A stretch of 64,000 nucleotides of DNA from Bacilli bacterium (GTDB taxonomy: Bacteria > Bacillota_I > Bacilli_A > RFN20 > CAG-826), in the NCBI GenBank assembly GCA_045117995.1, contig JBGUOH010000003.1, positions 32,374 to 96,373 of the forward strand, written 5' to 3'. The position numbers and the translations under genes are program-made. This document shows positions 1-27,870 of the stretch, one piece after another. Within the stretch, counting starts at the first letter, position 1; each line of letters begins with the position of its first letter. Under the pieces are notes generated by a model that saw nothing but the letters and a program-made list of their open reading frames with translations, had not been told where the DNA came from and ran no database searches.

Positions 1-14
1 ATCCATACTTACTG

Positions 15-7204: not shown

Positions 7205-7893
7205 TTGTTTTCTAACAGAACCACATACTCTTTCTTCATGTATTCAACATTCTCAAACAACCAAAAGATAACGTTTGAATAAGGCAACAACGAGTTATTG
7301 TCTTTCATAATAAAGTCCCAACTATCTTCAAATGTTTTTACATCTGGTGAAACACCTTTTAACTTTTCTAATAAGGCACCTAAGTTATTAGAATACTTAG
7401 CGAACATCTTTAACGCTAATAGTTTCTTTTGTTTATTGTTTGCGTTTTGAATATTGTCAAAAGCATGTTCTGCATTAGTTGAGACGTAATACAGTTTAAT
7501 CTTTCCACTCTTTAAGATAGTGGCGATGTTGTTTCTCTTGTTCTCTCTTTGCTGCTTTAATGGCTTAGGATTTTCACAAATAATTGATGTAGTAGTGTAC
7601 TTGATATTAGTAACACTATGGTCAACTTGGATTAGACTATCTGATAAGAAGCATCCATCTGTATCAATGATTTGAATAATTTCATCAAAGCTTTCGAAAT
7701 CATAAACCTTTTCCTTGTTCAACACTTCTTTGATATTTGTCTTATATCTATTTGCATACGATTTCTTAGTTAAGATATCGGTTTGAAAAGGAACAATTAC
7801 TAGATTGCTCTTATCAAATAATCCTTGTAGCACAGAAAAACGTTGTCTATCTGTTGCGCCTTCCACTAAAAACAAACAACGTTTCTTATTCAT
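7201..7893 (-). CDS. TOPRIM/OLD-like small nuclease-family protein (DUF4435 AriB-like / RloB-like)
   Basis: N-terminal 'LFLVEGATD' (TOPRIM Glu) and downstream 'IIQIIDTDGCF' (DxD); 230 aa; immediately downstream of AAA_21-type ATPase on same strand. Confidence 0.55.
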   Translation of the reverse strand: MNKKRCLFLVEGATDRQRFSVLQGLFDKSNLVIVPFQTDILTKKSYANRYKTNIKEVLNKEKVYDFESFDEIIQIIDTDGCFLSDSLIQVDHSVTNIKYTTTSIICENPKPLKQQRENKRNNIATILKSGKIKLYYVSTNAEHAFDNIQNANNKQKKLLALKMFAKYSNNLGALLEKLKGVSPDVKTFEDSWDFIMKDNNSLLPYSNVIFWLFENVEYMKKEYVVLLENN

Positions 7894-7900
7894 ATATCCG

Positions 7901-11811: not shown

Positions 11812-12294
11812 ATGAAAACCAAAATCTTAGAGTTATTAGAAAAGAACGCAAAACTTTCTATTAAAGAAATTGCAGAAGAACTTGATATCAAAGAAAAGGA
11901 TGCCCTCCAATTAGTGGGCGAACTAGAAGCGGATAAAGTGATATGTGGATATTCTGCCATTATTAACTGGGATAAGATCACTGAAGAAAAGTGCAATGCT
12001 TTAATTGAAGTGAAAGTCACGCCTCAAAGAGGTACTGGTTTTGATAGAATTGCTGACCGTATATCTAGATTTGATGAAGTAGATAGTATCTATCTTATTT
12101 CTGGTGGTTATGACTTTATGGTTATCATTAATGGTAAATCTATGAAAGAAGTATCCTCATTTGTGTTTAATAAATTAGCGACGATAGATTATGTACAAAG
12201 TACTGCCACTCACTTTGTCTTAAAGAAATATAAAGACCATGGAGTGCAGTTAGAAGATAAACTAGGTGATAAAAGAACTAATATTGTTTTATGA
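11812..12294 (+). CDS. Lrp/AsnC family transcriptional regulator
   Basis: 160 aa; N-terminal HTH 'LSIKEIAEELDI' and C-terminal RAM-like domain typical of Lrp/AsnC; overlaps the downstream aminotransferase by 4 nt. Confidence 0.7.
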   Translation: MKTKILELLEKNAKLSIKEIAEELDIKEKDALQLVGELEADKVICGYSAIINWDKITEEKCNALIEVKVTPQRGTGFDRIADRISRFDEVDSIYLISGGYDFMVIINGKSMKEVSSFVFNKLATIDYVQSTATHFVLKKYKDHGVQLEDKLGDKRTNIVL

Positions 12295-13448
12295 GAGATT
12301 TCGTATCAGAAAAAATTAAGAACATAAAACCTTCTGGTATCAGAAAGTTCTTTGATATTGCTAATAGTATTGAAGACTGTATCTCTTTAGGTGTGGGTGA
12401 ACCTGATTTTGATACGCCTTGGCATATTACAGAAGAAGGTATCTATTCTTTAGAACAAGGAAGAACTTTCTATACATCTAATCAAGGTTTACCGGAATTA
12501 AGAGAAGAAATCTCTAAATGGAATAAACGTAAATATAATCTTGATTATTCTAAAGAAGAAATCATTATCACCTGTGGTGGCTCAGAGGCTATTGATGTGG
12601 CCCTCAGAGCAACGATTAACCCAGGGGATGAGGTAATTATCCTTGAACCTAATTACGTCTGCTACGAGCCAGATATTTTACTTGCTGGTGGTGTACCTAT
12701 TAAGATTAAACTTAAAAATGAAAATGAGTTTAGATTAACTCCAATTGAATTAGAGAGCGTTATCACTCCTAAAACAAAGATCTTATTAATGAACTATCCT
12801 AATAACCCTACTGGGGCTATTATGGCTAAAGAAGATTTAGAAAAGATATCTAAGGTTATTATTAAACATGACCTCTTAGTAATATCTGATGAAATATATA
12901 GTGAATTAACATACGCTGGTAATCATTATTCTATCGGAGCATTACCAGGTATGAGAGATAGAACCATTACCATTAATGGCTTCTCTAAAACATATTCCAT
13001 GACTGGATGGAGATTAGGCTATGTCATGGGACCTAAAGAAATTATGGATCAAGTTAAAAAGATCCATCAATTCGTGGTCATGAGCGCACCTACGATATCT
13101 CAATATGCTGGATTAGAAGCATTAAGAAATGGTGATGAAGATATTGAAAGAATGAAGAAGGAATACGATAAGCGTAGAAAATATCTCTTAAAAGAATTTA
13201 ATAGATTATCACTTCCTTGCTTTGAACCTAAAGGAGCATTCTATATCTTCCCTGATATTAGAAAATACAATATGAGTAGCGAAGAGTTCGCCACTCAGTT
13301 ATTAAATAAAGAACATGTCGTTGTTGTTCCTGGAACAGCCTTTGGTGATAGTGGTGAAGGATTTATTAGAATATCCTATGCCTATTCATTAGATGCTTTA
13401 AAGGAAGCTATTAAGAGAATAGAGAGATTCCTTAAGAGTCTAAAGTAA
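12291..13448 (+). CDS. PLP-dependent aminotransferase class I/II (aspartate/aromatic aminotransferase-like)
   Basis: 'GFSKTYSMTGWRLGY' PLP-lysine motif region, 'NYPNNPTG' motif; 385 aa. Confidence 0.75.
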   Translation: MRDFVSEKIKNIKPSGIRKFFDIANSIEDCISLGVGEPDFDTPWHITEEGIYSLEQGRTFYTSNQGLPELREEISKWNKRKYNLDYSKEEIIITCGGSEAIDVALRATINPGDEVIILEPNYVCYEPDILLAGGVPIKIKLKNENEFRLTPIELESVITPKTKILLMNYPNNPTGAIMAKEDLEKISKVIIKHDLLVISDEIYSELTYAGNHYSIGALPGMRDRTITINGFSKTYSMTGWRLGYVMGPKEIMDQVKKIHQFVVMSAPTISQYAGLEALRNGDEDIERMKKEYDKRRKYLLKEFNRLSLPCFEPKGAFYIFPDIRKYNMSSEEFATQLLNKEHVVVVPGTAFGDSGEGFIRISYAYSLDALKEAIKRIERFLKSLK

Positions 13449-13474
13449 CAAAAACACTAACATTTTATTTAGAT

Positions 13475-13502
13475 ACCACCTCAATAAATGGGGTGGTTTT
13501 TT
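13475..13502 (+). terminator. rho-independent terminator after aminotransferase
   Basis: 'ccacc-tcaataaatgg-ggtgg' stem-loop followed by tttttt. Confidence 0.6.
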
Positions 13503-13584
13503 CTTAAATAAAATGTCTATAAAATATTGAATTCAATTTACTAAAATGGTAAAATGAATGTGCCACTAAAGAAAGGGGGCTCCA

Positions 13585-13938
13585 ATGAAGATAGTTTACA
13601 GCAATAAAAAGACCGAAAAACTTTGCGAAGATTATAGTAAGGCCATCAAAGATCTTGGCAAAGAAGTTGCTAATAAACTATCTGATTTACTTAACGCCAT
13701 TGAATCGTTCCCAACATTGCTTGATCTATTCTATTTACCACAATATAGATTGCATGCTTTGGGACAAAACAGACAATATCAATACTCATTCGTTATTCAT
13801 AAAGGATATAAGTGGCGATTGATTGTTTATCCACTTGATGAAGGTGGAAATATCCTTAAAGATAAGAGTAACGAAAAAGAGATGTTGTCTAAGGCAGTTA
13901 TGGTAGAGATATTGGAGGTGAGTGAGCATTATGATTGA
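13585..13938 (+). CDS. HigB-like toxin (RelE/ParE superfamily, plasmid killer family)
   Basis: 'RLHALGQNRQYQYSFVIHKGYKWRLIV' matches the HigB/killer-protein consensus (RLE.LKG.R.G.YSIRIN.QWRI.F); 117 aa; overlaps downstream antitoxin-like gene. Confidence 0.55.
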   Translation: MKIVYSNKKTEKLCEDYSKAIKDLGKEVANKLSDLLNAIESFPTLLDLFYLPQYRLHALGQNRQYQYSFVIHKGYKWRLIVYPLDEGGNILKDKSNEKEMLSKAVMVEILEVSEHYD

Positions 13939-15013
13939 GAGAAAGAGAATTGTCAGCCATCCTGGTGTATATGTTAAAGACGCTATTGAATCGTTAGGGC
14001 TGAGTCAAAGTGAATTTGCATATAGAACAGGATTATCAGTTAAAAACGTTTCAACACTTATTAATGGAGAAAGCAATATCACTTTTGATGTTGCTCTTAA
14101 ATTAGCGGGCTTTTTCCACAATAGTGTTGAAGGTTGGATTAATCTTCAAACTAAATACAATATCTTCTTAAATGAAGAAACAAAGCAAAAAGAATATGAA
14201 GAAGATTGGCTTATCGCAAAGCAATTCGATAAAACTTTTGTTCTTAATCTTCTACATATTCAAATCGATTCTAAGAACAAAGAATCCACAATTGATGAAC
14301 TAAGAAAACGATTTAAGGTTGTTAATTTACAAAATCTAAAAAGCCCAGATATGTATGCATTCTGCAGAACAAGTGTTTCGAAAGATATTAATGAAAAGAT
14401 GATTATCATGAGAAACGCATGGATTTCATTAGCTGAAGAAGAGGCAAGACAAATGGAATGCTCTGAGTTTGATAAGGACATGATTACTTCAAATGTTAAA
14501 TATCTCAGATCACTCACTCTTAAGGAACCAGATGAAATGAGCTCTGAATTAACAAACTTCTTAGCTAAGTGCGGTGTTAAACTCGTTATTCTTCCATTCC
14601 TTCCTGGAAGCAACATCAGTGGTGTTACCAAATGGGTCGCTAGCGAAAACTGCGTTATGGTAGCGGTTAATGACTGTGGTAAAGACGCTGATAAGATTTG
14701 GTTCTCCATATTCCACGAACTCGGCCACGCCATCAAGAATCATAAAAGACATCTAACCATTTCTCTTAGCAAGAACAATATAGAAGACGCTGAGGAGATT
14801 GAAGCAAATACATTTGCTAGAGATTCTTTATTAGATAAAAAAGACTTTGAAAGCTTCGTTAGAAAACAGGACTTCTCGATATCAAGCATTAAAGCCTTTG
14901 CTAGATCTCAAGATGTTGCTCCATTTGTGGTCATCGGCAGACTTCAAAAAGAGAAAATAATCGGTTGGGACAAATATCAAAACTATAAAACTAAATACGA
15001 AATTGGTTTTTAA
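13922..15013 (+). CDS. HigA-like HTH (XRE) antitoxin fused to ImmA/IrrE-family metallopeptidase domain
   Basis: N-terminal 'SHPGVYVKDAIESLGLSQSEFAYRTGLSVKNVSTLINGESNIT' (HigA/XRE HTH); C-terminal 'IFHELGHAIKNH' HExxH as in the COG2856 ImmA/IrrE family. Confidence 0.6.
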   Translation: MSIMIERKRIVSHPGVYVKDAIESLGLSQSEFAYRTGLSVKNVSTLINGESNITFDVALKLAGFFHNSVEGWINLQTKYNIFLNEETKQKEYEEDWLIAKQFDKTFVLNLLHIQIDSKNKESTIDELRKRFKVVNLQNLKSPDMYAFCRTSVSKDINEKMIIMRNAWISLAEEEARQMECSEFDKDMITSNVKYLRSLTLKEPDEMSSELTNFLAKCGVKLVILPFLPGSNISGVTKWVASENCVMVAVNDCGKDADKIWFSIFHELGHAIKNHKRHLTISLSKNNIEDAEEIEANTFARDSLLDKKDFESFVRKQDFSISSIKAFARSQDVAPFVVIGRLQKEKIIGWDKYQNYKTKYEIGF

Positions 15014-15196
15014 AGAAGATATCTAACTATTTTCTAGAATAATGATGAAAATCTTAAAAAACTCCGTTTAACTTCTAATAATTAGCCATTTATAATATTT
15101 TTTCTTGATAAAACCTCAATAAATTCGTAGACTAAACGAGTAGTGCGCATCAAATATTGAATTAGATGATGCTTTCGGAAGGAAACAATACAGCAG

Positions 15197-15694
15197 ATGA
15201 AGTATTTTCGACTAATCGTTTTCTCACTTATCTCAGTTATTTTTGTTTACCTTATACCTTTTTTAAATATTGTAGTCGTCAGTTCAAACGCTGAAGGCAT
15301 AATTGCTATTGTTAGTGTTTGCTCTGTTTTATCAAGTGCCGCTGCAGCTTCTTCTTGCTCAGCAAAGTTTTTAGGAAAAAAAGAGAATGGATGGCTTGCA
15401 GCCTTAATCATTCCGTCTCTTTCAATCTCTGTGTTTGTTTTCTGTGCTTGCTTGGCGTATCAATATTTCAATATATTGCTAATGCATGTTAGCTTTTTAA
15501 TTATCTTGACTGTCGTTGCCAATTTGCTAACTTTGGCTCTTTTAATCATTTCTTATTTCCTCGGATTTGATCCTACACCTGATGTAACAGCAGAAGAATC
15601 AAAAGAGGCTAAAGAGTTTGCTGAAAAAGCTAGTGGCGACGGTGAAACTAGTGGAGGTATCAATGTAACTAGAAAAGGAGGCGCCAAACAATGA
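15197..15694 (+). CDS. small multi-pass membrane protein, first gene of five-gene operon
   Basis: 165 aa, several hydrophobic segments, charged Gly-rich C-terminus; stop overlaps start of DGQHR gene (ATGA). Confidence 0.45.
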   Translation: MKYFRLIVFSLISVIFVYLIPFLNIVVVSSNAEGIIAIVSVCSVLSSAAAASSCSAKFLGKKENGWLAALIIPSLSISVFVFCACLAYQYFNILLMHVSFLIILTVVANLLTLALLIISYFLGFDPTPDVTAEESKEAKEFAEKASGDGETSGGINVTRKGGAKQ

Positions 15695-16809
15695 GTAAAA
15701 TAACAATTCCGGCATTTGAAATTGAACAACCAGTCGGTAAGTTTTACGTAGGAAAAGTTAAATACTATGATTTGATAGATTTGTGTTCTAAAGACCTTAG
15801 TAATATCAGTGGAACACAATATGACATATTCCAAAGAAATCTTGACTATACAAGGCTTCCTGCTCTTAAAAGATACATGGAATACTCAAGAGCCTCTTTT
15901 CCAAATGGTATAGTGCTTACTGCTAATTTACCATTCACTTATGAAAACGGAATGATTACTGTTGAAAAGAAAAAAGACGCGTTCTTTATTATAGATGGCC
16001 AACATCGTGTTGAAGCTTTGAAATATTATCATGGCAACAAAAAATTTGAAGTCTGTGTTGTTATTTTTGAACAAACAGACAAAGACATGAGAGCCGAGCT
16101 GTTTACAGTCATTAACAGCGAACAAAAGAAAGTGAATCCTACTGTTAAGTTAAACCTTAGAGGTAACGATATCGTAGATACTCCTGAAAAGGTTGTAAGG
16201 AAGATAGCGATTGCTTTGAATGAATCAAAGGAATCTCCTTTCTATCACCGCATTCGCTTTGGTGATGAATACACAAGAAGAGACTTAATTAAAATCTCCT
16301 TGGCTTCATTTGCTAAACCAATTATTTCCGCGATTTATTATCCAGATAATTTCTTCTCGCTTAAAGACAAATTAATTGAATCAAATAACGATAGAAGTGC
16401 TCTTGAAGAATTTGGATATGTTCATAAAAAATGTCTTTGGAATTACTACTTCAATAACAATGACGAAATTATATATTTAATTCTATTAAATTATTTTGGT
16501 GCGTTTGCAGATTTGTTTGAAAAAGATTGGAAATCACAAAAATCTATCTTGATGAAAACAACAGGTTTTAACGCAATGTTTATGTTGCTAAATGACTTGC
16601 TTAAGAATGCTAATGAGGAAGAAGAAAAAGACTTTAGCTATGAACATTTCTATAACCTCATTACACCATTAAAAATAATGGAAGGAACCTTCGTTCTTGA
16701 TAAATGGGGTGTAGGCCTTGCGGCATCGAGCAAATTATATAGAGAATTCACAAGAATACTTAACATGTCAGCTCAATATAAAGAGTTCGATGATTATAAC
16801 GAAGAATAA
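15691..16809 (+). CDS. DGQHR domain protein (DndB-like / ParB-like nuclease superfamily)
   Basis: Literal 'FFIIDGQHRVEAL' motif; 372 aa. Confidence 0.6.
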   Translation: MSKITIPAFEIEQPVGKFYVGKVKYYDLIDLCSKDLSNISGTQYDIFQRNLDYTRLPALKRYMEYSRASFPNGIVLTANLPFTYENGMITVEKKKDAFFIIDGQHRVEALKYYHGNKKFEVCVVIFEQTDKDMRAELFTVINSEQKKVNPTVKLNLRGNDIVDTPEKVVRKIAIALNESKESPFYHRIRFGDEYTRRDLIKISLASFAKPIISAIYYPDNFFSLKDKLIESNNDRSALEEFGYVHKKCLWNYYFNNNDEIIYLILLNYFGAFADLFEKDWKSQKSILMKTTGFNAMFMLLNDLLKNANEEEEKDFSYEHFYNLITPLKIMEGTFVLDKWGVGLAASSKLYREFTRILNMSAQYKEFDDYNEE

Positions 16810-16823
16810 TTAGTATTTAATCT

Positions 16824-17213
16824 ATGGAACCAATTAAAATAACTTATTGTTATCCCGATAGAACCAAAGAGGGACGAGAACCAGGAGAGTCTTCATTCAT
16901 AGTTTCTGATAGCAATATTGAAACCATTATTGGAGAATCAAATCCTATCGACTGTGTTTGTGACACTATGAAATTGGTAATCATGGAAAAATGTGATAGA
17001 AAGAAACTAAACGAACAAACTGTTTCTTTTTTCAGAGACTTAAATTCTTTCGCAGATTTTGTTAATAGAACCATCATCAACATATTCACGCAAGAGAATG
17101 AGCTTCGATATAGTTCGGTAGAAGTTAATAACATTTTGAAAGAAATAAATTCTGAGTCTGCCAAATTAGCAGATAGTTTTTTTGACGTCTATAATGATTG
17201 CAACAAGGAATAG
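16824..17213 (+). CDS. hypothetical small protein in DGQHR operon
   Basis: 129-aa ORF 14 nt downstream of DGQHR gene; no motif recognised. Confidence 0.3.
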   Translation: MEPIKITYCYPDRTKEGREPGESSFIVSDSNIETIIGESNPIDCVCDTMKLVIMEKCDRKKLNEQTVSFFRDLNSFADFVNRTIINIFTQENELRYSSVEVNNILKEINSESAKLADSFFDVYNDCNKE

Positions 17214-17784
17214 TATGATTGACCGCAAATACTTGTTAGAACTATATAATGCTAGAAAAAGCCAAGCCTGCGTAGCTTTTGCCTTTGACAATGATGGTAA
17301 AAGATATTTCGCTGTAAATGGTAAAGACACAAAATGCCCCGACCAGCTCGAACCCATTTTGAAAGTTTTTGGCGATTCTCCGATTTTTTGCGGTTACAAT
17401 TTTTCATTTACGGTGCTTAGACCATTTGTTAGTAAAAAAACATTAGATGACACATACAATCTTATTGATAATTTGGATTATTCTGGTTCTTCTGTTGGAT
17501 TCGATCTCTTATCTTTTAGATTATATAGGAAGTTCCCGATTAACTATTTATTTGATAATCGACATTTTTCATGCGCTGAAAAGAAAATTGTTGGTTATTG
17601 TGAGTTCATGGATATAACGATTGGGACTTTATATACAACTAAAACGCCGTGCTATTATTGCCTCCCTGTTATTGAATCTGTCGAGTTTCTTACGAAGAAA
17701 TTAGAAAAAAGAACAGTTAAGAAGAGCGGCAGTGCTTATTCTACAGGCGATGGATTGAGTTACTTTTTGTACAAAAGGTATTAA
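17182..17784 (+). CDS. putative zinc-dependent deaminase-fold protein (CDA-like C-A-E ... P-C-x-x-C)
   Basis: 'FSCAEKK' followed 24 aa later by 'TPCYYC', the spacing/signature of cytidine-deaminase-like zinc sites; true start may be ATG at 17215 (RBS aaggaa). Confidence 0.35.
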   Translation: MTSIMIATRNSMIDRKYLLELYNARKSQACVAFAFDNDGKRYFAVNGKDTKCPDQLEPILKVFGDSPIFCGYNFSFTVLRPFVSKKTLDDTYNLIDNLDYSGSSVGFDLLSFRLYRKFPINYLFDNRHFSCAEKKIVGYCEFMDITIGTLYTTKTPCYYCLPVIESVEFLTKKLEKRTVKKSGSAYSTGDGLSYFLYKRY

Positions 17785-17790
17785 TTTGTT

Positions 17791-19053
17791 ATGAGCTGGA
17801 TAAAATTTTCTAGAAAATTTAAGACAATCGTTGGAAACGATGTAATTACAATCTCAAATGGTTCTATCTTTTTCACCAGTGAAGACGGCGAGACACATTC
17901 TATATTTAGCAAGGATTTATATAATTCTATTATTGATGCTGCCGAAATAAAAAGTTTTAATGGTGACATATTGCTTAAGAAAGATACTGTCGAAATTAGA
18001 ATTGATGAAGTCAATGGTAGCGCTCGTGTGCCATTCCGTTATAATAATGAACGCATTAATCATTTTTTTGTAACCTCTGGCCAAACTTTTTTTGATTCTA
18101 TTCAAGTATCAAAAGCCTCTATTGAGTACTTAATTAGTTATTTTGAAAACAATGAGCCCAATAATGCAGTTATGGCGAAATATATGCTCGATAGGATTTT
18201 CGATCCAGATTCTGAGGAAGAAAACCCTAGTGTTAGAGAACCGATAAATATAGTAGGTAGAGTCCTATCTTACATTTTGAGCATTCCCCGTTGCGTTGTT
18301 GTCTCTAGAAAAAAGAATGGCCGCTCTTTGCAAATTAATACTATCTTAGAAAATTGTGAATCACTACTAATGTATATCGCGATGAATTACGGGTGTGCCA
18401 TAAAATTGGGAATTGATAAAAGCTTCTTAAAAAGAAGAGGTTTCTTGCCACGCATGACATACACAATGCCGATAATTAAATGCAAAGATGTATTTGTCGA
18501 AGAGAAATACATTCAGGCAACAGCTACAAATAGTTATGACACTAAGTTTCTGTTCTTTTATCAAATTTTGGAAAGAATCGCTCAAAAAATGGCTCCTTCT
18601 TTGTTCATTGCTGAAATCAGAGACGTCGTCTCTACAAGGTCAAGAGTGTCTGACTATGACAAGTTCGTTGACATGAAAAACAGAATAAATGGTGATAACG
18701 AACAACAATTGCTAGAAAAATTTCTGCGCTCAAAGGTTTTATTAAGCACACTAATGCCTATTATTCCCCCTTCTTTGATTACATATTTTGAGAATACTCT
18801 GCCACGTTTTATTGATCAAAAAATAGAAGCGAAAATCAATTTTAGTAATCAGGCTGATTATTCTAGAACGATGTCTAAAAGAATTTACTGGATTAGAAAC
18901 GCTATTGTTCACGCTAAAGAAGAGAATTTTAAGAAAAAAGCCAAAGAAACACCTTTTGATTGGGCCGTAGATGGCGAGCTGCTCATTCCTGAACTCGCGA
19001 TGCTGAAGTTGATAGTCGATTTTTCAATAAAAGTTTATTCTTCTCGAAAATAG
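17791..19053 (+). CDS. hypothetical protein with C-terminal HEPN-like R-x4-H motif
   Basis: 'YWIRNAIVHAKEE' (R-N-x-x-x-H) near C-terminus as in HEPN RNases; 420 aa; last gene of operon. Confidence 0.35.
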   Translation: MSWIKFSRKFKTIVGNDVITISNGSIFFTSEDGETHSIFSKDLYNSIIDAAEIKSFNGDILLKKDTVEIRIDEVNGSARVPFRYNNERINHFFVTSGQTFFDSIQVSKASIEYLISYFENNEPNNAVMAKYMLDRIFDPDSEEENPSVREPINIVGRVLSYILSIPRCVVVSRKKNGRSLQINTILENCESLLMYIAMNYGCAIKLGIDKSFLKRRGFLPRMTYTMPIIKCKDVFVEEKYIQATATNSYDTKFLFFYQILERIAQKMAPSLFIAEIRDVVSTRSRVSDYDKFVDMKNRINGDNEQQLLEKFLRSKVLLSTLMPIIPPSLITYFENTLPRFIDQKIEAKINFSNQADYSRTMSKRIYWIRNAIVHAKEENFKKKAKETPFDWAVDGELLIPELAMLKLIVDFSIKVYSSRK

Positions 19054-19246
19054 CGTGTAGAGCCAACTGGTTCTGAACACGAATATAAGATTTGGAAAGT
19101 TGAATATATCTCCTTGATATATCCTCTTTTTCTCGTCTCTTACAAATCTTTTGCGTTGTCACAATACTTAATTTATAATTAAAACAAATAACCAAACATA
19201 AGTCGTATTGACTATGTCCAGTCCATAATGGGGAGAGAACTTTTAT

Positions 19247-20419
19247 ATGTGTAGAAAGAAACAGAAGACAGATAATGTCCCAATGACCAACTACGTGGTT
19301 TCAGGCAACCATGAAGATGGCAAGTTAGTAGAATTACCATCTAACGTTGAAAAGATCAGATTAGAAACTGATAACAAGAATTTATTCTATCGTGCCTACG
19401 GTGCTTTTAAGAATCCAGATACCAAACTCATTTTATCCGCTCCTGGATGTGAAATGATGATTCTTAGAGATGGTGTGGCTAGTGAACCTTTAGGAAATGG
19501 TTCCTATCCAGCCTTTGGTGAAGATGATTTTGAATATAAGAAAAAATGCTTATTTGGAAAACCAAAGAAACAAGTTAAAGGTAACGTCATGTTTGACGTC
19601 ATCGTCTTTAACCAAAACCTTTCTTATGAAGGTTTCTGGGGTATTCCAAATCCAATCCCATATCGTGATCCAGAAACAGATATCCCAGTGGATATCAGAG
19701 GTCGTGGTAAATACGACATTAGAATTGCTGATGTAAAGAAATTCTTCGAAAGAGTCGTCGGTAGTAACCGTGACTTTAAGATGGAAGACTTATTAGAAAG
19801 AATTAATGATCATGTTGTCCATATTCTTAAAGGCGAATTAACCAAAGTCATTCATGACCATCACTTAGGATATATTGATTTACCATTACATGAAGCAGAA
19901 GTAGCAGAGGCTATTCAACCACTTGTGTCTGAAATGTTGAATGAACAATATGGTTTATTCTGTCCATTGTTCTCCGTTGAACAATTCTTCATCGATGAAG
20001 AACAACGTGCAGAAATCGAAGCCTTCCTTAAAGCTAATAGAGATGAAAAGAAATTCAAAGCCGACGCTAAAGAAATTGCTGCCGAACTTGAAAGACTTGA
20101 TGATAAAGAATGGGAAAGAACAAAGTTCCTTATCGCTTTAAGAAGAGAAGACGAATCCAAGTATTTAGAAGTTATCAAACTCTTAGGTTATCCAGATAAC
20201 CCATCATACGCTCAAGAAGCTAAGAAAGCCGCTGCAGAAGCAGCCAAAGACGTTGCTAAGAGATTCTGTCCAAAGTGTGGTGCAGAAGTCGTTAGAGGCG
20301 AACCATTCTGTCCACAATGTGGTGAAGCTTTAGCGCCAATCGAAAGAAAATGCCCATATTGTGGCAAGACCATCAAGAGTAAAGGCAAATACTGCCCACA
20401 TTGTGGTAGGGAGCTTTAG
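19247..20419 (+). CDS. SPFH/Band-7 (PF13421-type, B. subtilis YdjI-like) protein with C-terminal tandem zinc ribbons
   Basis: 'WGIPNPIPYRDPETDIPVDIRGRGKYDIRIADVKKFFERVVGS' closely matches the YdjI-family core; C-terminus has 'CPKCG...CPQCG...CPYCG...CPHCG'. Confidence 0.65.
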   Translation: MCRKKQKTDNVPMTNYVVSGNHEDGKLVELPSNVEKIRLETDNKNLFYRAYGAFKNPDTKLILSAPGCEMMILRDGVASEPLGNGSYPAFGEDDFEYKKKCLFGKPKKQVKGNVMFDVIVFNQNLSYEGFWGIPNPIPYRDPETDIPVDIRGRGKYDIRIADVKKFFERVVGSNRDFKMEDLLERINDHVVHILKGELTKVIHDHHLGYIDLPLHEAEVAEAIQPLVSEMLNEQYGLFCPLFSVEQFFIDEEQRAEIEAFLKANRDEKKFKADAKEIAAELERLDDKEWERTKFLIALRREDESKYLEVIKLLGYPDNPSYAQEAKKAAAEAAKDVAKRFCPKCGAEVVRGEPFCPQCGEALAPIERKCPYCGKTIKSKGKYCPHCGREL

Positions 20420-20422
20420 TTT

Positions 20423-21160
20423 ATGCGTTGCCCAAAATGTGGCGCTAACGTGCCAGACGGTAAGAGCAAATGCCCTTACTGCTTTTCACCATTAAACGCA
20501 TATTCTGAACCAGTTCCTAATCGTGCTAATTATGCATCTGTGAGTCCTGCTGCTCAAAGTCAAAGACCATCTCTCCAAGCAAGTGTTCCTGATATTTATG
20601 ACAAAAATGTCCGTGGAATAGTTATCGTCAACAAACCAGAGGGTACTGGTACAGGATGTATAATTTCTAAGGATGGCCTTATCTTAACTAATGCGCATAT
20701 GGCATTTAGTAAGAAAGAAAAAGCTTTTTACTCCGCTGTGGAAGTTATCATTGATAATGTTTCATACACTGGTCAACTAATAAATGCTAATGTCCCACAT
20801 GGGGATAATGACGTTGCTTTGCTCAAAGTTGATGGTACATTTGATCATATTTTAAAGTTTGGTGATTCATCAACCCTTAGAAACGGTGATGAAGTCATTG
20901 CTATTGGTAATTCATTGGGCTTGGGTATGAGCGTCGCTCGCGGCATTGTCTCTGACACACGAAAGAGTGTCGAGGGTTCAATATTGATTACAAGTGACGT
21001 GGCCACTAACCATGGTAACTCAGGCGGTCCATTATTTAATACACGTGGTGAAGTTATCGCCCTTTGTGTTTCCGGTATAGACGGCGCTAAAGGCATGAAT
21101 TTTTTCATTCCAATCAATCGCGTTCTCGATATTTTAGCAGCATGGGGGTATAAATTCTAA
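20423..21160 (+). CDS. zinc-ribbon + trypsin-like (S1/HtrA-like) serine protease
   Basis: N-terminal 'CPKCG...CPYC'; protease motifs 'LTNAHM' (His), 'DVALLKV' (Asp), 'GNSGGPLFN' (Ser); 245 aa; start 4 nt after the SPFH-gene stop. Confidence 0.65.
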   Translation: MRCPKCGANVPDGKSKCPYCFSPLNAYSEPVPNRANYASVSPAAQSQRPSLQASVPDIYDKNVRGIVIVNKPEGTGTGCIISKDGLILTNAHMAFSKKEKAFYSAVEVIIDNVSYTGQLINANVPHGDNDVALLKVDGTFDHILKFGDSSTLRNGDEVIAIGNSLGLGMSVARGIVSDTRKSVEGSILITSDVATNHGNSGGPLFNTRGEVIALCVSGIDGAKGMNFFIPINRVLDILAAWGYKF

Positions 21161-24100
21161 TGCCAGAAATTCTCATCAAGTGTCCGCACTGTGGTGGTGA
21201 GAAGTTAGTTGATCAGAATGAAGAATTTGTAAAATGCCAGTACTGTCATAAAACATTCCCTTTGAGGGAATCAAAAACTGGCCTTAACGCTCAATTACAA
21301 AGTCAAATTAATGACGCTATTAATAAGAGAAACAAGTTTGAATTTAATGAAGCAACAATCATTCTAGAAGATCTTGTTTCTACTTACCCTGATGTCGCGG
21401 AGATATATTTCCAATTACTCCTTTCGGATTATGGTATTTCTTATGTAAGTGAAGATAGTAACATTACAGAGAAGCCAGTAATTTCTAGTGTCCAAAAGGA
21501 ATCAATATTCTCTAAAGAGTATTACCATAAACTAGAATCTCTTTTAAGTGAGTTGCCAAGCACACTTAAAAACTATAAAGAGCGATTAGAGGAGATTGAA
21601 AAACTCCGTGAAGAATCACTCAAGACAATGAAAGAAATCGAACCTTTCGATATCTTTATTTGTTATAAAAGAACAACAGGTGACAGTGGTTTAACATTTG
21701 ATAGTAAAACCGCTGATAAGTTATATAGAAAGTTTTCTGAATGGGGACTTAATGTCTTCTATGCTGAAGAAACTCTCTATCGTAAATACGCTGGTAAAGC
21801 CTTCGAACCAGTTATTTGTAGTGCTTTATTAAGCGCTAAGTTATTTGTCTTGGTGTGTGCCACACCAGATCATAAAGAATATCTCTTAGCCCCTTGGGTT
21901 AAAAACGAATGGGCTAGATTTAAAAAGAGAGTGGAAAACGAAGTGGACGTTAAATTACGTTTACTCCCTGTCTTTGATAATGGCTTCACTCCAGAAAAAT
22001 TACCACGTGAATTAGAAGGCATTGAAGGCATTAAATTGGACGATGAATTTGATAACAACGTCTATAGCCTTATTAGTTCTTTAATTCCAAAGGAAAAGAA
22101 GAGCAAATTTAATGAAATTAAAGTCCAAGCCAATAAAGTTGGTTCTTTATCCGTTAAGAAAGAAGAAATCGTTGCTAGAAAGTTTACAGGCTTTAAAGAA
22201 AAAGAATTAAACAATTTAGAAAAGACTGACTTCAATATGGCGGTTGCTGATATGAAGATTAACAATAACAGCAAATACAAAGCCGCCTATAAGAAGTTAT
22301 GTCGTTTAACAGAAACTAATAAGTTTAACTTTGAAGCTAACTTAGCAAAGCTAAAATGTAACTTTAAGATTCCTAATGATGATAGTTTGGTTAACACATC
22401 ATTATGGAGAGTTGATGACATCAACCGTATGAATAATGACTTCCTCGCTTTAATGGAAGCGGGTGGTGAAGACTGCGCTAGAGTGAGAAAAGCCATGGTG
22501 CAGATGCTTAAGAAGTCATTCAATGATAATCCAAACAAATTCGCTAGTGAGTTAAAGAAAGAAGAAAGTACATTCTTAACCATTGCTAAAACATTTGAAG
22601 ATAGAAATGAAATGTTTGATTATGCAGTGGAGTTTGAAAAACCATACTTTGATTTACTCAATAACCGCGCTCAACACTCTAAACTTAAAGACGATGATAT
22701 TTTAAACATCGCTAATAAGTTATTTAGACGTATCTACTCTAACTATGAAGAAAAGGGTGCTCATCAAATCTTTAACTTATACCTTAGATCTTTCAAAATC
22801 TTATCCGCAGGCAATAAGAAAGAAAATAAGCACCTCGTGGATGAGTTTATTGACCTAGCGTTAGAGATTAACAAGTTAGATGTTGACTGCCTATGGTATC
22901 GATTCTGCTTCGATCTAGACTGCTTAGGGGCTAATGAATTTACCCTTGCTAAGAAGCTAAAGAAAGAAAACTTCGTGGAGTTCGATATCAAGAAAAAGAC
23001 TATCGATGATAAGCTTAAAAAAGCTAATCTCTATTACTTCATGATTAAGGCTATTGAAAGTGGCTATAAAATGGACTTCACTAGTCCATCATGTAATAAC
23101 AACTATTTCAATACCATCTTAAAAGCCACATGCATCATGGTTAATAAGAAAAAGAATAAGGAAATCACTAAAAAGATATTCACTCTTCTTGCTTCTTTAA
23201 CCGGCAGTGGTTCCACGAGTGACGCTAATACAATTAAGTTATTAATGACCATCGGTGATCGTTTATTACTCGAAAAGAGATATAAAGAAGCCAAACGTTA
23301 TTATGAAGAAATACTAAATATTGATGAAACTGATTGTGAAGCAAGATGGGGTATCGTTAAATGCGATATTAAGAAACCATCTAACTACAGCGTTTTATTC
23401 TATAGAAAATCACTTAATGATGTCCCATCATTTAGAATGCTTATCGCTGTTCACGATGAAAAACATCCTGACGAAGTAGACCATTATTTAGCGTTCTATC
23501 AAGCTATTGAAGCCATCAAGGGCGAACGCAGCAAAACCAATAGGCAACTCAAAAAAGCTTTTAAGAATAATCATCAGAGATTGATGAAAATAGATTTCCC
23601 ATATGATACACCTGTGAAAGATATCATCATCTCTATTGGTAATGGTACATTAGCTCAACAAGCCTTAAAGCCTAAGAGAGCGCCAAAACAATCTTCACAA
23701 GGCACATATAATAATCCAACTCACTATTCTTTCGCTAAAGAAAGAGTGAGCCTGGTATTCAATATCTTGTTCATATTAACCGCATTTGTGTCAGTGATTT
23801 TGCTAAAACCAGAATCTTCTTTCGTAGCGATATTTGCTTTAGCAATCATCGCAGCGATTATGTCGAGGGCCGGGTATGGTCATTTAGCGACAGGTAGAAG
23901 TCCATATAAGCCATTAATCATTGTCTTTGGCGTATTGTCGTTCATACCATATATCGTGGTTATTAGTATTCTATTTACCTCTAATGCAAATGCGATCAAT
24001 GACATAACTAAAACACAAGCGTTTGTTTACTTTGTGGTTGGTTTAGTATTCGCATTCATTTACTTCCTACTCACAATTATTAGAAAAACAAAACCAAGTT

Positions 24101-24351
24101 CTCAAGATATGGATAATTCCAATGTCTTCACTTATTACCTATTGAAGTTTATGGCGATTACCGGTTCTGTATTAGGTGGTTTCTATGCTTCAATGTCCAT
24201 TGGTGATACTGGGACGATATTTGGTATCACATTAGATACTTCTAATGTCTTCGTTAAATTCATGGTAACAGCTGGTCATCTTTACTTAATACCTGTTCTC
24301 TTTGTTTTAACGAATTTGATTTTAAGACTTATTAGGGGGCGTGGATTATGA
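21160..24351 (+). CDS. zinc-ribbon - TIR domain - long helical region - C-terminal multi-pass membrane domain protein
   Basis: N-terminal 'CPHCGG...CQYC'; TIR-like 'FDIFICYKR...NVFYAEE...LLAPWVKNEWARF'; last ~300 aa strongly hydrophobic (several TM helices); 1063 aa; overlaps flanking genes. Confidence 0.55.
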   Translation: MPEILIKCPHCGGEKLVDQNEEFVKCQYCHKTFPLRESKTGLNAQLQSQINDAINKRNKFEFNEATIILEDLVSTYPDVAEIYFQLLLSDYGISYVSEDSNITEKPVISSVQKESIFSKEYYHKLESLLSELPSTLKNYKERLEEIEKLREESLKTMKEIEPFDIFICYKRTTGDSGLTFDSKTADKLYRKFSEWGLNVFYAEETLYRKYAGKAFEPVICSALLSAKLFVLVCATPDHKEYLLAPWVKNEWARFKKRVENEVDVKLRLLPVFDNGFTPEKLPRELEGIEGIKLDDEFDNNVYSLISSLIPKEKKSKFNEIKVQANKVGSLSVKKEEIVARKFTGFKEKELNNLEKTDFNMAVADMKINNNSKYKAAYKKLCRLTETNKFNFEANLAKLKCNFKIPNDDSLVNTSLWRVDDINRMNNDFLALMEAGGEDCARVRKAMVQMLKKSFNDNPNKFASELKKEESTFLTIAKTFEDRNEMFDYAVEFEKPYFDLLNNRAQHSKLKDDDILNIANKLFRRIYSNYEEKGAHQIFNLYLRSFKILSAGNKKENKHLVDEFIDLALEINKLDVDCLWYRFCFDLDCLGANEFTLAKKLKKENFVEFDIKKKTIDDKLKKANLYYFMIKAIESGYKMDFTSPSCNNNYFNTILKATCIMVNKKKNKEITKKIFTLLASLTGSGSTSDANTIKLLMTIGDRLLLEKRYKEAKRYYEEILNIDETDCEARWGIVKCDIKKPSNYSVLFYRKSLNDVPSFRMLIAVHDEKHPDEVDHYLAFYQAIEAIKGERSKTNRQLKKAFKNNHQRLMKIDFPYDTPVKDIIISIGNGTLAQQALKPKRAPKQSSQGTYNNPTHYSFAKERVSLVFNILFILTAFVSVILLKPESSFVAIFALAIIAAIMSRAGYGHLATGRSPYKPLIIVFGVLSFIPYIVVISILFTSNANAINDITKTQAFVYFVVGLVFAFIYFLLTIIRKTKPSSQDMDNSNVFTYYLLKFMAITGSVLGGFYASMSIGDTGTIFGITLDTSNVFVKFMVTAGHLYLIPVLFVLTNLILRLIRGRGL

Positions 24352-25526
24352 GAAAAAGATCATTAATATTATTAGCGCTCAGCGCTATTGCTCTTACATC
24401 ATGCTCCTATAATCCATTCAATGAATTCACAGGCATTAACTTTACTTTTGGTAGTGGAATTAATGTCCTACAAAACCACAAGTATCTATTCTGGGAAGAC
24501 AATGATAAGTGTTCTGGCTATGAAATTTATCTTTACAACGACACTTCATCAAGTGACGAACCAATTCTAAGAACGTCAGATCATTTCGTTGAAGTTCAAG
24601 ATGGATGGGTAGGTAATAAGATTAAAGTTGTTGGCTACACATACGACATGAAAAACATTACCAGTCTTTTTGATATCAAAAAGAAAACCGTTGTCTCATC
24701 AAGTAAAATCAAAGTTACTACTAATAAAGTTCCTTCTTCAAGTGGTACCTCATTGATCGTTAATAATTCATATTTGCAAGAGCAATTAGGAACTAAGGGG
24801 TATGGCGCTATCAAGATTCCTAATACTGTCACGTATGTTGAAATTAGAGATATAACAAATAATTACCATCCTACTTTCATTTTTGATGCAAGAGATGATG
24901 GTGATGTTGTGAAGATTGAACTTCGTAGTTCAACTCTAGTTGGCACTAACGATTTATTTGGCCCATCTGTTTTCCGTTATAATGGAACAAATAAGGATGT
25001 GAATTTCTATATTAGAGTCTGTGGCAAAAATACAATAACTGCGCCTAATTTATCAAGTGATACTGGATCCGCGATTGATTTACCAAGAGTTACTTTCTAC
25101 GATTATTACGATTATTCAGAAGATAATAAAGCAGAACTAACTGTTACTGGTGGCGTTTCTGCTAATAAGAATATTAGCTCTGGTTATGCAATTAAGGCTG
25201 ATAGGGTAGTCAGTTATCTTTCTCCATCAGTGATTAAACTAATTGGTGGAGCGGGCTTTGCCGCTATCACAAATGGTGATAACGGTGGTACTGGTCAAAT
25301 GCCTATTGAACCACATGCTCAAATCTACGCTACCCAAAAGAACGCTATTGGCATACAAGCCGGTAATGGTGGCAAAGGCGGCAGTGTTGGTAGAGGTGGT
25401 AAGGCCTATGGCTATAAGTATCTTTCTGAAATTACATATAAGAAGTACGCTAGTTCAATCTACCGTATCAAAGAAGCTTCAGTGGGTACAGGTGGCATTG
25501 CTAGCGGCACTTATATTAGTAACTAA
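24348..25526 (+). CDS. secreted lipoprotein with Gly-rich C-terminus
   Basis: Signal peptide and lipobox 'ALTSC'; 'GNGGKGGSVGRGGKAYGY' near C-terminus; start overlaps stop of the TIR-membrane gene. Confidence 0.5.
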   Translation: MRKRSLILLALSAIALTSCSYNPFNEFTGINFTFGSGINVLQNHKYLFWEDNDKCSGYEIYLYNDTSSSDEPILRTSDHFVEVQDGWVGNKIKVVGYTYDMKNITSLFDIKKKTVVSSSKIKVTTNKVPSSSGTSLIVNNSYLQEQLGTKGYGAIKIPNTVTYVEIRDITNNYHPTFIFDARDDGDVVKIELRSSTLVGTNDLFGPSVFRYNGTNKDVNFYIRVCGKNTITAPNLSSDTGSAIDLPRVTFYDYYDYSEDNKAELTVTGGVSANKNISSGYAIKADRVVSYLSPSVIKLIGGAGFAAITNGDNGGTGQMPIEPHAQIYATQKNAIGIQAGNGGKGGSVGRGGKAYGYKYLSEITYKKYASSIYRIKEASVGTGGIASGTYISN

Positions 25527-25549
25527 GAATTAAACGCTTTATCAGACGA

Positions 25550-25577
25550 AAAGCATCAATAACATTGGTGCTTTTTA
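25550..25577 (+). terminator. putative rho-independent terminator after lipoprotein gene
   Basis: 'gcatcaat-aac-attggtgc' stem (one G-U pair) followed by ttttt. Confidence 0.45.
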
Positions 25578-25700
25578 TATATTTAAAAAATTGGCCAAAT
25601 AACATTTAAGCGTGGAAAAACAGACATAAATAGTTAAAATCGTTAAAAAAAGTAACACTTTTATATATTTATATGTATAATATTAGAGCAGGTAACAATT

Positions 25701-27059
25701 ATGTTTAGATTAAATTCAATTAAATTCCATAACTTCAGAAACATCCTTGATAGTGAAATTAACTTGAACACTAAAGAACTTAGCACACCATTAGGTGGCG
25801 CTATTGCGGGTATCTACGGTACTAATGGTTCTTCCAAGTCTAGCGTTGGATACGCCTTGTGCTATTTGTACAAACAAGCTTTTGATTTGTCACCAGCATT
25901 TTTTCATAATTTTGATAATGACTTTGGTATCTCAGATGACTATGTTTCTTTAGAATACGATTTCTCGTTTGCCCACGAAGACTATGAAGGTTTGATTATT
26001 AGATTTGTTTGGAAAAAGAACTCTGAGACAAAAAAGGTCTATATTTGTGAAGAGTCCATAACTTTTAAAACGAATAAAAAAGGAAAGCCATATTCATACA
26101 CAGTTAGTAAAACTGATAATAGTCTCGAATATCTAATTCCAGATAACGATGCCAAACGACTTTGCGATTTTTTCTCAGTCGATGAAAAGATGCTTTATAG
26201 ATTGTATAGTACCTCTGTTGATGGATCATATTCAATGCTCTTAAATCTCAAAAGCTTGCAAGCCATCATCGCTTATTTGCAAGAAAGAAAACCAGCTGAT
26301 TTTGAATTAAATAATAACTTTTCTTATCTATCTTTTTTTGCTCATAGTCTTTTCTCCTCGACTGCATTCATTATGCCTGATTCTTATGGCGCTAGTATCA
26401 CTAATAATTTATTCCTTTCATATGGTGATAAAGAAACGCCTTTATCCGCTTTAAACAAAGATCAAACGGGCACAATTTTTGCCACTGAGCAACAATTAAA
26501 AGCAATTGAAAGTATTGTGGCAACAAGCAACAAATTCATGAAAAAAGTTGTTTCTGATTTCGAAGTGACTATCGATAAAGAATTGCAAGAAACAACCGCT
26601 GACGGTATTAAAAAATACCGTGTTCAATTCATGTCCAACAAAAAAGAAGGAAGCTTCTTATTTGAAAACGAGAGTGAAGGTATTAAGAGATTGTTTAACA
26701 TTGCTGTCTCTCTCGCTAGATGTATGAATGAACCAGACTTCATCGCGTTCATTGATGAGTTTGATGAAGGCGTTTTTGAAGTGCTTTATGGTGAACTTAT
26801 TAATGGCTTGAACAAACAATGTATGGGCCAGCTCATTTTTACGTCTCATAATTTAAGACCATTAGAAGTATTGAATTATAAGAACTTTATTTTCTCAACA
26901 TTAAATCCAAAGAATAGATTTGTGACATTAAAGGGTGTTAAACCACAAAACAACCTTAGAGATATCTATATTAGAAAAATTATGTATGGTGGAAACGATG
27001 AGTTATCTTCATCTATTGATGACGATGACATCATCGAAGGTTTGATTGATGCCAAGTGA
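25701..27059 (+). CDS. AAA_21/ABC-type ATPase, paralog of 7901..9277 (degenerate Walker A)
   Basis: 'GIYGTNGSSKSS' (Walker A with Gly-to-Ser), 'IAFIDEFDEGVFE' Walker B, 'FTSHNLRPLEVLNYKNF...NNLRDIYI' C-terminus clearly homologous to 'FNSHNMRILEKVDYKNF...NNLRDMYY' of the first ATPase. Confidence 0.6.
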   Translation: MFRLNSIKFHNFRNILDSEINLNTKELSTPLGGAIAGIYGTNGSSKSSVGYALCYLYKQAFDLSPAFFHNFDNDFGISDDYVSLEYDFSFAHEDYEGLIIRFVWKKNSETKKVYICEESITFKTNKKGKPYSYTVSKTDNSLEYLIPDNDAKRLCDFFSVDEKMLYRLYSTSVDGSYSMLLNLKSLQAIIAYLQERKPADFELNNNFSYLSFFAHSLFSSTAFIMPDSYGASITNNLFLSYGDKETPLSALNKDQTGTIFATEQQLKAIESIVATSNKFMKKVVSDFEVTIDKELQETTADGIKKYRVQFMSNKKEGSFLFENESEGIKRLFNIAVSLARCMNEPDFIAFIDEFDEGVFEVLYGELINGLNKQCMGQLIFTSHNLRPLEVLNYKNFIFSTLNPKNRFVTLKGVKPQNNLRDIYIRKIMYGGNDELSSSIDDDDIIEGLIDAK

Positions 27060-27807
27060 GGAAATTACAGGATCTTTTTCCACTCCCCTTATTGTGGTTA
27101 TAGGGGAGGGACCAAGCGATATACAATATTTAGAGCCGCCTTTAAAAGCCTATTACTCTAAGAAATATGGCGTGAAGTGTAAACTTATCACAATCAGTGA
27201 TGTGACAAGTGATCCTAATTACACAGATGCACAGTTAATGGATCTCCTTCCTGCATTTATTGAAGGAGAACTAAAAAGACCTATCAATAAAATTGATAAA
27301 GAAATAGCTGCCAATATTAAAGAAATAATTCAGATTATCGATATAGATGAAGCGTTTATTGATGATAGTTTAATTAGAGAAGATAAGACAAAAGATAAGT
27401 TCTTCTACACAAGAAACGGGATTGAGTATAAAAACATTGAGACTGTCAAAGAGAGAAATCGAAGAAAACAAAATAGAATAGCAACGCTCAGAACCACAGA
27501 AACAGTTAACGTCTTTGGATACGATATTCCATACACGTTATTATTCTTTTCCATCAACATTGATGATTTTCATTATCCGAACGCATTAAATTGGACACAA
27601 GAAAAAAAGAATCTACAAGCAGCAATGTTTGCTAGAAGAAACTATTATTCGAAAGATGATGACGCTAAGATTGAAACTTTTAAAGCGTTATTTGATAAAA
27701 ACCCAACAGATTTTCCGAATAATATCCAGGATGCATGGGACTATGTTTCTAGAGACAACAACTGCTTAAAAACTTGTTCGAATGTAATTTATAAAATTAA
27801 AGAGTAA
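27046..27807 (+). CDS. TOPRIM/DUF4435-like small protein, paralog of 7201..7893
   Basis: 'VVIGEGPSD' and 'IIQIIDIDEAFIDDSLI' versus 'LVEGATD' and 'IIQIIDTDGCFLSDSLI' in the first copy; 14-nt overlap with upstream ATPase. Confidence 0.55.
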   Translation: MMPSEEITGSFSTPLIVVIGEGPSDIQYLEPPLKAYYSKKYGVKCKLITISDVTSDPNYTDAQLMDLLPAFIEGELKRPINKIDKEIAANIKEIIQIIDIDEAFIDDSLIREDKTKDKFFYTRNGIEYKNIETVKERNRRKQNRIATLRTTETVNVFGYDIPYTLLFFSINIDDFHYPNALNWTQEKKNLQAAMFARRNYYSKDDDAKIETFKALFDKNPTDFPNNIQDAWDYVSRDNNCLKTCSNVIYKIKE

Positions 27808-27808
27808 A

Positions 27809-27834
27809 GGAACGCGGGGGTGCGTTCTTTTTTC
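27809..27834 (+). terminator. rho-independent terminator after second ATPase/TOPRIM pair
   Basis: 'gaacgc-gggggt-gcgttc' hairpin followed by ttttttc. Confidence 0.5.
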
Positions 27835-27870
27835 TTTTTAATGCGTATACATAATGCTAGACTTATACGC

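Follow-up and report, generated by a model that had tools for sequence, protein, structure and literature searches.

Two gene pairs that each encode an ATP-binding cassette (ABC)-type ATPase and a smaller TOPRIM-like protein lie in a 64,000-nucleotide (nt) stretch of contig JBGUOH010000003.1 from a Bacilli bacterium (GenBank assembly GCA_045117995.1), the whole of which is referred to here as the window. The pair of interest, pair 2, consists of ATPase 2, in which a Ser stands in place of the Gly that normally precedes the Walker A Lys, and partner 2, a putative nuclease. Pair 1, which consists of ATPase 1 and partner 1, lies on the opposite strand at a distance of 16.4 kb (Table 1). The open reading frame (ORF) of partner 2 as listed extends from 27046 to 27807 on the forward strand and would encode 253 amino acids, and starting at the ATG at 27049 gives 252. 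We take the ATG as the true start because orthologs begin MP(S/N)(E/D)E and because, on contigs of identical sequence, gene callers also put the start one codon further in; with this start, the two genes of pair 2 overlap by 11 nt. No frameshift was found in either ORF of pair 2, and both are intact. Moreover, nearly identical proteins, differing by one residue each (Y95H in the ATPase and T146M in the partner), are encoded in independent metagenome assemblies, on at least 15 contigs, a recurrence that excludes a frameshift or assembly artifact. An earlier reading of the same DNA, here called the original prediction, had given both ORFs, their opposite strands, a spacing of about 17 kb, and the motifs quoted from them just as they are found.

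The two pairs are homologous over their full lengths. ATPase 1 and ATPase 2 share 26% identity over approximately 430 aligned amino acids (E = 2e-30). BLASTP aligned the partners over the C-terminal 161 amino acids (33% identity, E = 9e-17), and profile-to-profile comparison of the two partner subfamilies with hhalign gave an alignment of 226 columns (probability 100%, E = 1.6e-45) that takes in the N-terminal (V/I)EGxSD motif, which BLASTP left out. The original prediction had claimed that both proteins were homologous to those encoded at 7201..9277 and that the architecture of an ATPase with a TOPRIM-type protein was shared, and both claims are borne out. Neither of the two findings that it had named as counting against it, similarity limited to motifs on pairwise alignment or frameshifts in the second copy, was seen.

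Profile and structure searches agreed on the type of ATPase. Pfam AAA_21 matched ATPase 2 with 33 bits (E = 8.6e-8; cut-off, 27 bits) and ATPase 1 with 49 bits, and the top PADLOC model was AbiLi for both ATPase 2 (E = 2.9e-21) and ATPase 1 (E = 2.3e-27), with weaker matches to AriA, Mad3, PtuA, and HEC-01A/PDC-M models. The AlphaFold2 model of ATPase 2 had a predicted local distance difference test (pLDDT) score of 90.9, and Foldseek matched it to Rad50, SMC heads, and the PtuA proteins of Septu and retrons with E values of 9e-12 to 1e-9 and a probability of 1.00. Searched against the PDB, a profile of the family ATPases returned P-loop-level matches only (ABCE1, RecF, and Rad50), and a profile of the clade to which ATPase 2 belongs returned no match at E ≤ 0.01. 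We conclude from the model that the predicted head fold of ATPase 2 is Rad50/SMC/PtuA-like.

The Walker A motif of ATPase 2 (GTNGSSKS) departs from the canonical GxxxxGK[ST], whereas that of ATPase 1 (GQNGSGKT) conforms to it. ATPase 1 and the wider family carry GQNGSGKT[TA] at this site, and all family members examined outside the clade of ATPase 2 have the canonical Gly before the Lys, mostly as GQNGSGKT[ATS]. Within the clade, here called the Ser-P-loop clade, G-x-N-[GS]-[ST]-S-K-S-S is present in 21/21 full-length members, down to 46% identity. The codon for Ser45 is always TCN: TCC in the window, TCT at L007 and at L008, and TCA at L009 (L numbers denote comparison loci). A TCN Ser codon cannot become a Gly codon by fewer than two substitutions, and its third position varies synonymously; together, the two-step distance and the synonymous drift are a signature of purifying selection on Ser45. 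Moreover, Lys46, Ser47, E324-S325-x-G327, D352-E353, D355, and H383 are invariant throughout the clade. When family-conserved columns were compared, five of the nine fixed clade-specific switches fell within residues 13 to 47 (Fisher p = 0.013), which make up the N-terminal strands and the P-loop; K13R, V15I, G18S, G45S, and T47S are fixed, and Q41T/A is variable. By analogy with other ABC ATPases, the switched positions may line the nucleotide pocket, and their pattern looks like that of a remodeled pocket rather than a dead one. A literature search for SMC/Rad50-type ATPases that naturally carry Ser for the Walker A Gly found nothing usable. The original prediction had spoken of a degenerate Walker A motif; the Gly-to-Ser change stands, but degeneracy does not, as the Ser is fixed in the clade and the other catalytic motifs are invariant. 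Judged by these sequence patterns, the Ser before the Walker A Lys appears to be a selected, lineage-defining change and not decay, and it most likely retunes ATP affinity or turnover without abolishing it.

The partner protein has features of a TOPRIM nuclease. A TOPRIM signature consists of a Glu after β1 and a DxD after β3 (PMC12065111), and both are present in partner 2 at the corresponding places of its predicted topology. The AlphaFold2 model of partner 2 had a pLDDT of 94.8, and D98, D100, K140, K187, and N245 are invariant among 110 members of the partner family. Searched as single sequences, some of these members weakly matched the domain models Toprim (7 members), DUF4276 (6), and OLD-like_TOPRIM (4), as well as DUF3226, and the defense models mad4 (6), HEC-01B (5 + 3), PDC-M38B (7), and AbiLii (1); partner 1 itself gave a marginal match to PADLOC mad4 (E = 0.021). 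Partner 2 had no match in Pfam, PADLOC, NCBIfam, or PHROG, neither partner matched a phage family among the PHROGs, and the partner profile retrieved nothing meaningful from the PDB sequences. A Foldseek search with the partner 2 model did not confirm a TOPRIM fold, which is a caveat on the label. We conclude that the motifs, the predicted topology, and the weak profile matches support describing the partner as TOPRIM-like. A profile search collected 1222 clusters of this family (clustering at 50% identity), and 889 of these had E ≤ 1e-10; the homologs on RefSeq plasmids are annotated "hypothetical protein."

Pairs 1 and 2 belong to separate lineages. Among 119 family ATPases, copy 1 ranked 118th in similarity to copy 2, and copy 2 ranked 106th in similarity to copy 1. 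The copy 2 clade comprises 22 database clusters (P0014 to P0035), 21 of them full length, at 46 to 100% identity, and beyond it identity is about 30%. The copy 1 lineage is graded from 93% to 30% identity and includes proteins from Bacilli and Izemoplasmatales metagenome-assembled genomes (MAGs). A neighbor-joining tree recovered the variant clade as monophyletic (21/21) on a stem of 0.17, compared to a median internal branch of 0.028. The copy 1 lineage is the commoner and the copy 2 lineage is rare. No clade member turned up when the GTDB representative genomes were scanned by pattern with the profile of the clade, which leaves metagenome assemblies and MAG contigs as the only sources from which the Ser-P-loop clade is known here. 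The closest relatives of the window are ruminal MAGs. Moreover, pair 2 behaves as a cassette. At L015, in a sister ruminal Bacilli MAG, the SPFH, trypsin-like, TIR/TPR, and lipoprotein genes directly adjoin the Asp aminotransferase gene (95% identical), with pair 2 missing, and in the window the corresponding insertion or deletion has a terminator on each side. A search for flanking repeats at the cassette found chance-level short matches only, with no target-site duplication and no terminal inverted repeats. Sequence relationships and synteny thus indicate that pairs 1 and 2 were acquired independently and were not duplicated in place.

The variant ATPase and its partner subfamily travel together. 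In the window and at L001 to L008, L011, L012, L059, and L060, the ATPase gene is followed by a gene for a partner of 220 to 260 amino acids that overlaps it or nearly does so. The partner 2 subfamily is found only beside Ser-P-loop ATPases (in the window and at L001 to L008, L060, and L061), and the nearest partner outside the subfamily, P0013 (31% identity), lies beside a GQNGSGKTV ATPase. At L007, L008, and L060, in unrelated neighborhoods, no canonical family pair accompanies the variant pair within 10 kb. Ser-P-loop pairs lie in or beside capsule or polysaccharide biosynthesis clusters in three of four contexts outside the window. These clusters (L007, 1..9000 and 12205..16007; L008, 1..7846; L060, 2983..7771) carry genes for glycosyltransferases, Wzy, epimerases, and Polysacc_synt_2 proteins. 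The ATPase at L009 is the most divergent member of the clade (GPNGTSKSS). Beyond a HipA/HTH (helix-turn-helix) pair, the same locus encodes a distant AAA_21 ATPase with GTNGMGKSA (2..1594), and the gene downstream of it starts MELKLLVLIESSDES, is cut by the contig end, and possibly encodes a TOPRIM-like partner. The AAA_21 gene was considered as a second case of a variant and a canonical pair residing together and was rejected, as the ATPase is more distant, is similar only over its C-terminal 110 amino acids (E = 7e-10), and has a different partner.

Table 1. Coordinates of the two pairs, their motifs, and the features flanking pair 2 in the window
Feature	Position	Strand	Remarks
ATPase 2, ABC/SMC-head-type (AAA_21, AbiLi-like), Ser-P-loop clade member	25701..27059	+	452 amino acids
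Partner 2, TOPRIM-like putative nuclease	27049..27807	+	252 amino acids
ATPase 1, canonical Walker A GQNGSGKTT, separate lineage	7901..9277	-	458 amino acids
Partner 1, TOPRIM-like (E11-G12, D77-T-D79)	7201..7893	-	230 amino acids
Variant Walker A of ATPase 2, G40-T-N-G-S-S45-K46-S47-S48 (GTNGSSKSS)	25818..25844	+	Ser45 in place of the Gly preceding the Lys
ABC signature-like motif of ATPase 2, E324-S325-E-G327	26670..26681	+	Invariant in the clade and the whole family
Walker B D352-E353 and D-loop D355 of ATPase 2	26754..26765	+	Invariant in the clade and the whole family
H-loop His383 of ATPase 2	26847..26849	+	Invariant in the clade and the whole family
E20-G21 of partner 2, TOPRIM-type Glu right after predicted β1 (residues 14-19)	27106..27111	+	In at least 90% of 110 members
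D98-I-D100 of partner 2, TOPRIM-type DxD ending predicted β3 (residues 90-98)	27340..27348	+	Invariant in 110 members
Insertion/deletion holding pair 2	25527..27854		2.3 kb; missing between the lipoprotein and Asp aminotransferase genes at sister MAG locus L015
Promoter-like site, GTAACA-18-TATAAT	25652..25681	+	20 nt upstream of the ATPase 2 start; 10/12 matches, the top score of the region; consensus match only, with no excess of sites overall over shuffled expectation
Terminator-like hairpin with T-run	27806..27831	+	Directly 3' of partner 2; 11-bp stem, then TTCTTTTT

Modules that combine an ABC ATPase with a TOPRIM protein (OLD, Gabija, PARIS, AbiL, and MADS3-4) rank with the most common immune sensors of bacteria. 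[quoted passage not shown] To our knowledge, the way in which ATP use sets the trigger threshold has been worked out for PARIS only. AriA oligomers of PARIS sequester the TOPRIM nuclease AriB, and ATP binding is needed for trigger sensing and AriB release, such that a Walker A K39A mutant loads AriB and shows neither sensing nor release (PMC11464382). By analogy with PARIS, the SMC-head-like ATPase 2 would oligomerize and keep partner 2 inactive, sense a phage cue in an ATP-dependent manner, and then free or activate the partner 2 nuclease, which would cut host or phage nucleic acid such that infection is aborted; the Ser P-loop may tune nucleotide affinity or turnover. We infer, then, a defense function for pair 2, sequestration and release of an active nuclease, and retained ATP use by ATPase 2. 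A more specific version, which we consider doubtful, is that the coordinated N-terminal changes, Q41T/A included, shift the bound nucleotide or make hydrolysis very slow and thereby lead to a differently timed or differently triggered release of the coevolved TOPRIM-like nuclease. If that were true, the Ser-P-loop clade would be a re-engineered ABC sensor and a mechanistic subclass new among defense systems that pair an ABC ATPase with a TOPRIM protein.

Several points weigh against the defense reading. No experimentally tested member of the exact family was found in the literature, and neither partner 1 nor partner 2 matched a model in Pfam, PADLOC AbiLii, or NCBIfam. Co-occurrence with canonical pairs was scored over 10-kb flanks. 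At L009, an orphan variant ATPase is followed by a 41-codon partner remnant, MPQNDVQYKKPIVVLYCEG (4866..4991), and some loci are therefore decaying. Finally, the Gly before the Walker A Lys is normally required for phosphate binding in P-loop NTPases, and thus loss of ATP binding in ATPase 2 is possible. The last point opens a real, if unlikely, alternative in which ATPase 2 does not bind nucleotide and would instead hold the nuclease as a scaffold or antitoxin that needs no ATP, with protein-protein contact as the sole means of sensing. Such a scaffold would suit the replacement of a Gly that, from general knowledge of P-loops, normally lets the backbone contact the β-phosphate, but the invariance of Lys46, Ser47, the signature motif, and the Walker B, D-loop, and H-loop residues down to 46% identity would be unexpected if ATP binding had been lost. 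Likewise, the clade has lost the precomputed AAA_15 (PF13175) match entirely and the SMC_N (PF02463) match mostly, both of which the wider family has, and its ATPase profile (A3) finds no PDB ATPase, but the swaps fixed along with the Ser are concentrated in the P-loop-bearing N-terminal stretch and look like compensation and not decay.

It is improbable, in our view, that the module is a toxin-antitoxin addiction cassette or a DNA-processing unit that travels in variable regions and not a form of anti-phage immunity. The best profile match of the ATPase is to the abortive-infection ATPase AbiLi, and the tested pairs of an ABC ATPase with a TOPRIM protein (AbiL, PARIS, and MADS3-4) are defense systems. 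The neighbors are mostly defense-type genes: those of pair 2 include TIR/TPR, SPFH, trypsin-like, DndB/DpdB-like, and ImmA/PD-Lambda-2_B-like genes, and AbiH, AbiEii, and BrnT/A genes lie near the pair 2-type module at L007. The recurrence of variant pairs inside polysaccharide or capsule gene clusters and the proximity of toxin-antitoxin genes (HipA/HTH at L009 and BrnT/A at L007) would fit a nondefense role, and PARIS itself acts as a toxin-antitoxin pair (PMC13064643), but toxin-antitoxin-like action and a defense role can coexist.

That pair 2 is an in-genome duplicate of pair 1 that has since diverged, one copy being now a decoy or regulator, is very improbable: one variable region holds the two pairs within 18 kb, and their homology is full-length, but each ATPase is close to the worst match of the other, each copy has close orthologs on other contigs, pair 2 is a separate cassette missing at L015, and it retains an intact, codiverged nuclease with conserved catalytic residues. 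The original prediction had proposed duplication followed by divergence, which does not survive the mutual ranks, the separate lineages, and the insertion or deletion relative to the sister MAG. Its suggestion of a decoy or regulator of copy 1 fares no better, as the variant pair stands alone over 10-kb flanks at L007, L008, and L060 and has its own codiverged partner subfamily, which argues against a role tied to copy 1. A divergence in specificity, also part of that proposal, is plausible between two coresident subfamilies but would have come about by independent acquisition and not by duplication. Finally, the two pairs had been said to bracket other defense operons. The region is indeed variable and rich in defense genes, but not all of it is defense: an AsnC-type regulator and aminotransferase genes (11812..13448), which are conserved housekeeping genes, separate the pair 1 variable region from the pair 2 variable region.

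The stretch between the two aminotransferase genes (13436..27863) is a swap hot spot. At L014, from an Erysipelotrichaceae MAG, it is replaced by 6.5 kb of other genes (L014 3526..9991), and L001, which carries a nearly identical pair 2, has a different upstream cassette (1..3150) encoding an AAA_15/21 ATPase, a 350-amino-acid protein, and an HD protein. Directly upstream of pair 2, a four-gene block on the forward strand (19247..25526) is kept together at L001, L002, L005, and L015. Its products are an SPFH/Band_7 protein that has double zinc ribbons, a trypsin-like zinc-ribbon protease that resembles the RT-Protease_XI and LmuA protease domains, a 1063-amino-acid TIR and TPR protein with a multipass membrane C terminus, and a 392-amino-acid lipoprotein. 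No PADLOC system matched the block, which looks like a candidate defense operon. Farther upstream, 13922..19053 holds a run of defense-like genes, which encode an HTH and ImmA/IrrE M78 peptidase protein (PD-Lambda-2_B-like, E = 7e-23), a DUF262 protein of DndB/DpdB-like type (E = 7e-17), and a 420-amino-acid protein with a weak DzbB match; several small ORFs interspersed among them had no matches. On the pair 1 side, a forward-strand gene for a 1216-amino-acid protein (3554..7204), which had no match in Pfam or PADLOC, converges on pair 1, overlapping the 3' end of partner 1 by 4 nt. At L012 and L013, the gene downstream of a pair 1-type module (ATPase 84% identical) lies on the same strand and encodes instead a 1171-amino-acid SIR2_2 protein, and large effector-like genes seem to travel with the pair 1 lineage. 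A 777-amino-acid protein with a Schlafen group 3-type helicase/AAA_22 domain is encoded upstream of pair 1, at the window's left edge (15..2348).

Current defense-finder models would probably miss both pairs, and it is an annotation gap that the partner family, with about 1200 clusters when grouped at 50% identity, lacks a Pfam, NCBIfam, or PADLOC model. What is new here is a family uncharted in current models and a rare clade with a fixed noncanonical P-loop, and not a new principle. One genome that holds a canonical and a Ser-P-loop pair, each with a codiverged nuclease, provides a natural contrast that makes the role of the Walker A Gly and partner specificity directly testable by swaps, and the locus is a clean natural experiment on that Gly in immune ABC ATPases.

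The pairs were compared to known systems that join an ABC ATPase to a nuclease. In Gabija GajA and class 1 OLD proteins, the ATPase and the TOPRIM domain are fused, and Gabija adds the GajB helicase, whereas the window has two genes and no helicase; GajA matches to the window ATPases were marginal (E = 1.5e-4 and 2.9e-4). PtuA of Septu and retron I-A is among the closest solved defense structures to the ATPase 2 model (Foldseek E of about 1e-11), but the partner of PtuA is the HNH nuclease PtuB, the window partner is TOPRIM-like, and no reverse transcriptase or multicopy single-stranded DNA (msDNA) locus is present. Mad3 models of MADS match both ATPases (E = 1.8e-8 and 6.6e-9), and Mad4, a DUF4276-type TOPRIM protein, is the model that weakly matches partner 1 and 6/110 family members. 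However, MADS comprises multiple genes and is associated with methylation, neither pair has a methyltransferase gene or any other mad gene next to it, and NCBIfam MAD3 gives 22 bits, the cut-off being 420.

PARIS (AriA and AriB; OLD class 4) likewise joins an AAA_15/21-type ABC ATPase to a separate TOPRIM nuclease, and AriA models are secondary matches to the window ATPases (E = 3.6e-9 and 1.9e-13), although the AriA model that matched amounts in essence to the generic AAA_21 profile. AriB is a DUF4435 protein of about 35 kDa, whereas the window partners have 230 to 252 amino acids and no AriB/DUF4435 match. AbiL (AbiLi and AbiLii of Lactococcus, related to RloA/RloB) has been grouped with PARIS (PMC13064643) and has the same arrangement as the window pairs, an ABC/Rad50-like ATPase of about 450 amino acids followed by an adjacent small TOPRIM-type protein. 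Consistent with this likeness, AbiLi is the best PADLOC model for both window ATPases, but the match covers profile positions 50 to 277 of 326 only, and pair 2 differs further by its Ser P-loop. Neither window partner matches AbiLii or Pfam RloB at E ≤ 0.1, 1/110 family members matches AbiLii (E = 0.004), and a tblastn search of plasmids with ATPase 1 returned no Lactococcus record. We conclude that, although its partner protein fails the partner test of each of the three systems, the module resembles AbiL, PARIS, and MADS3-4.

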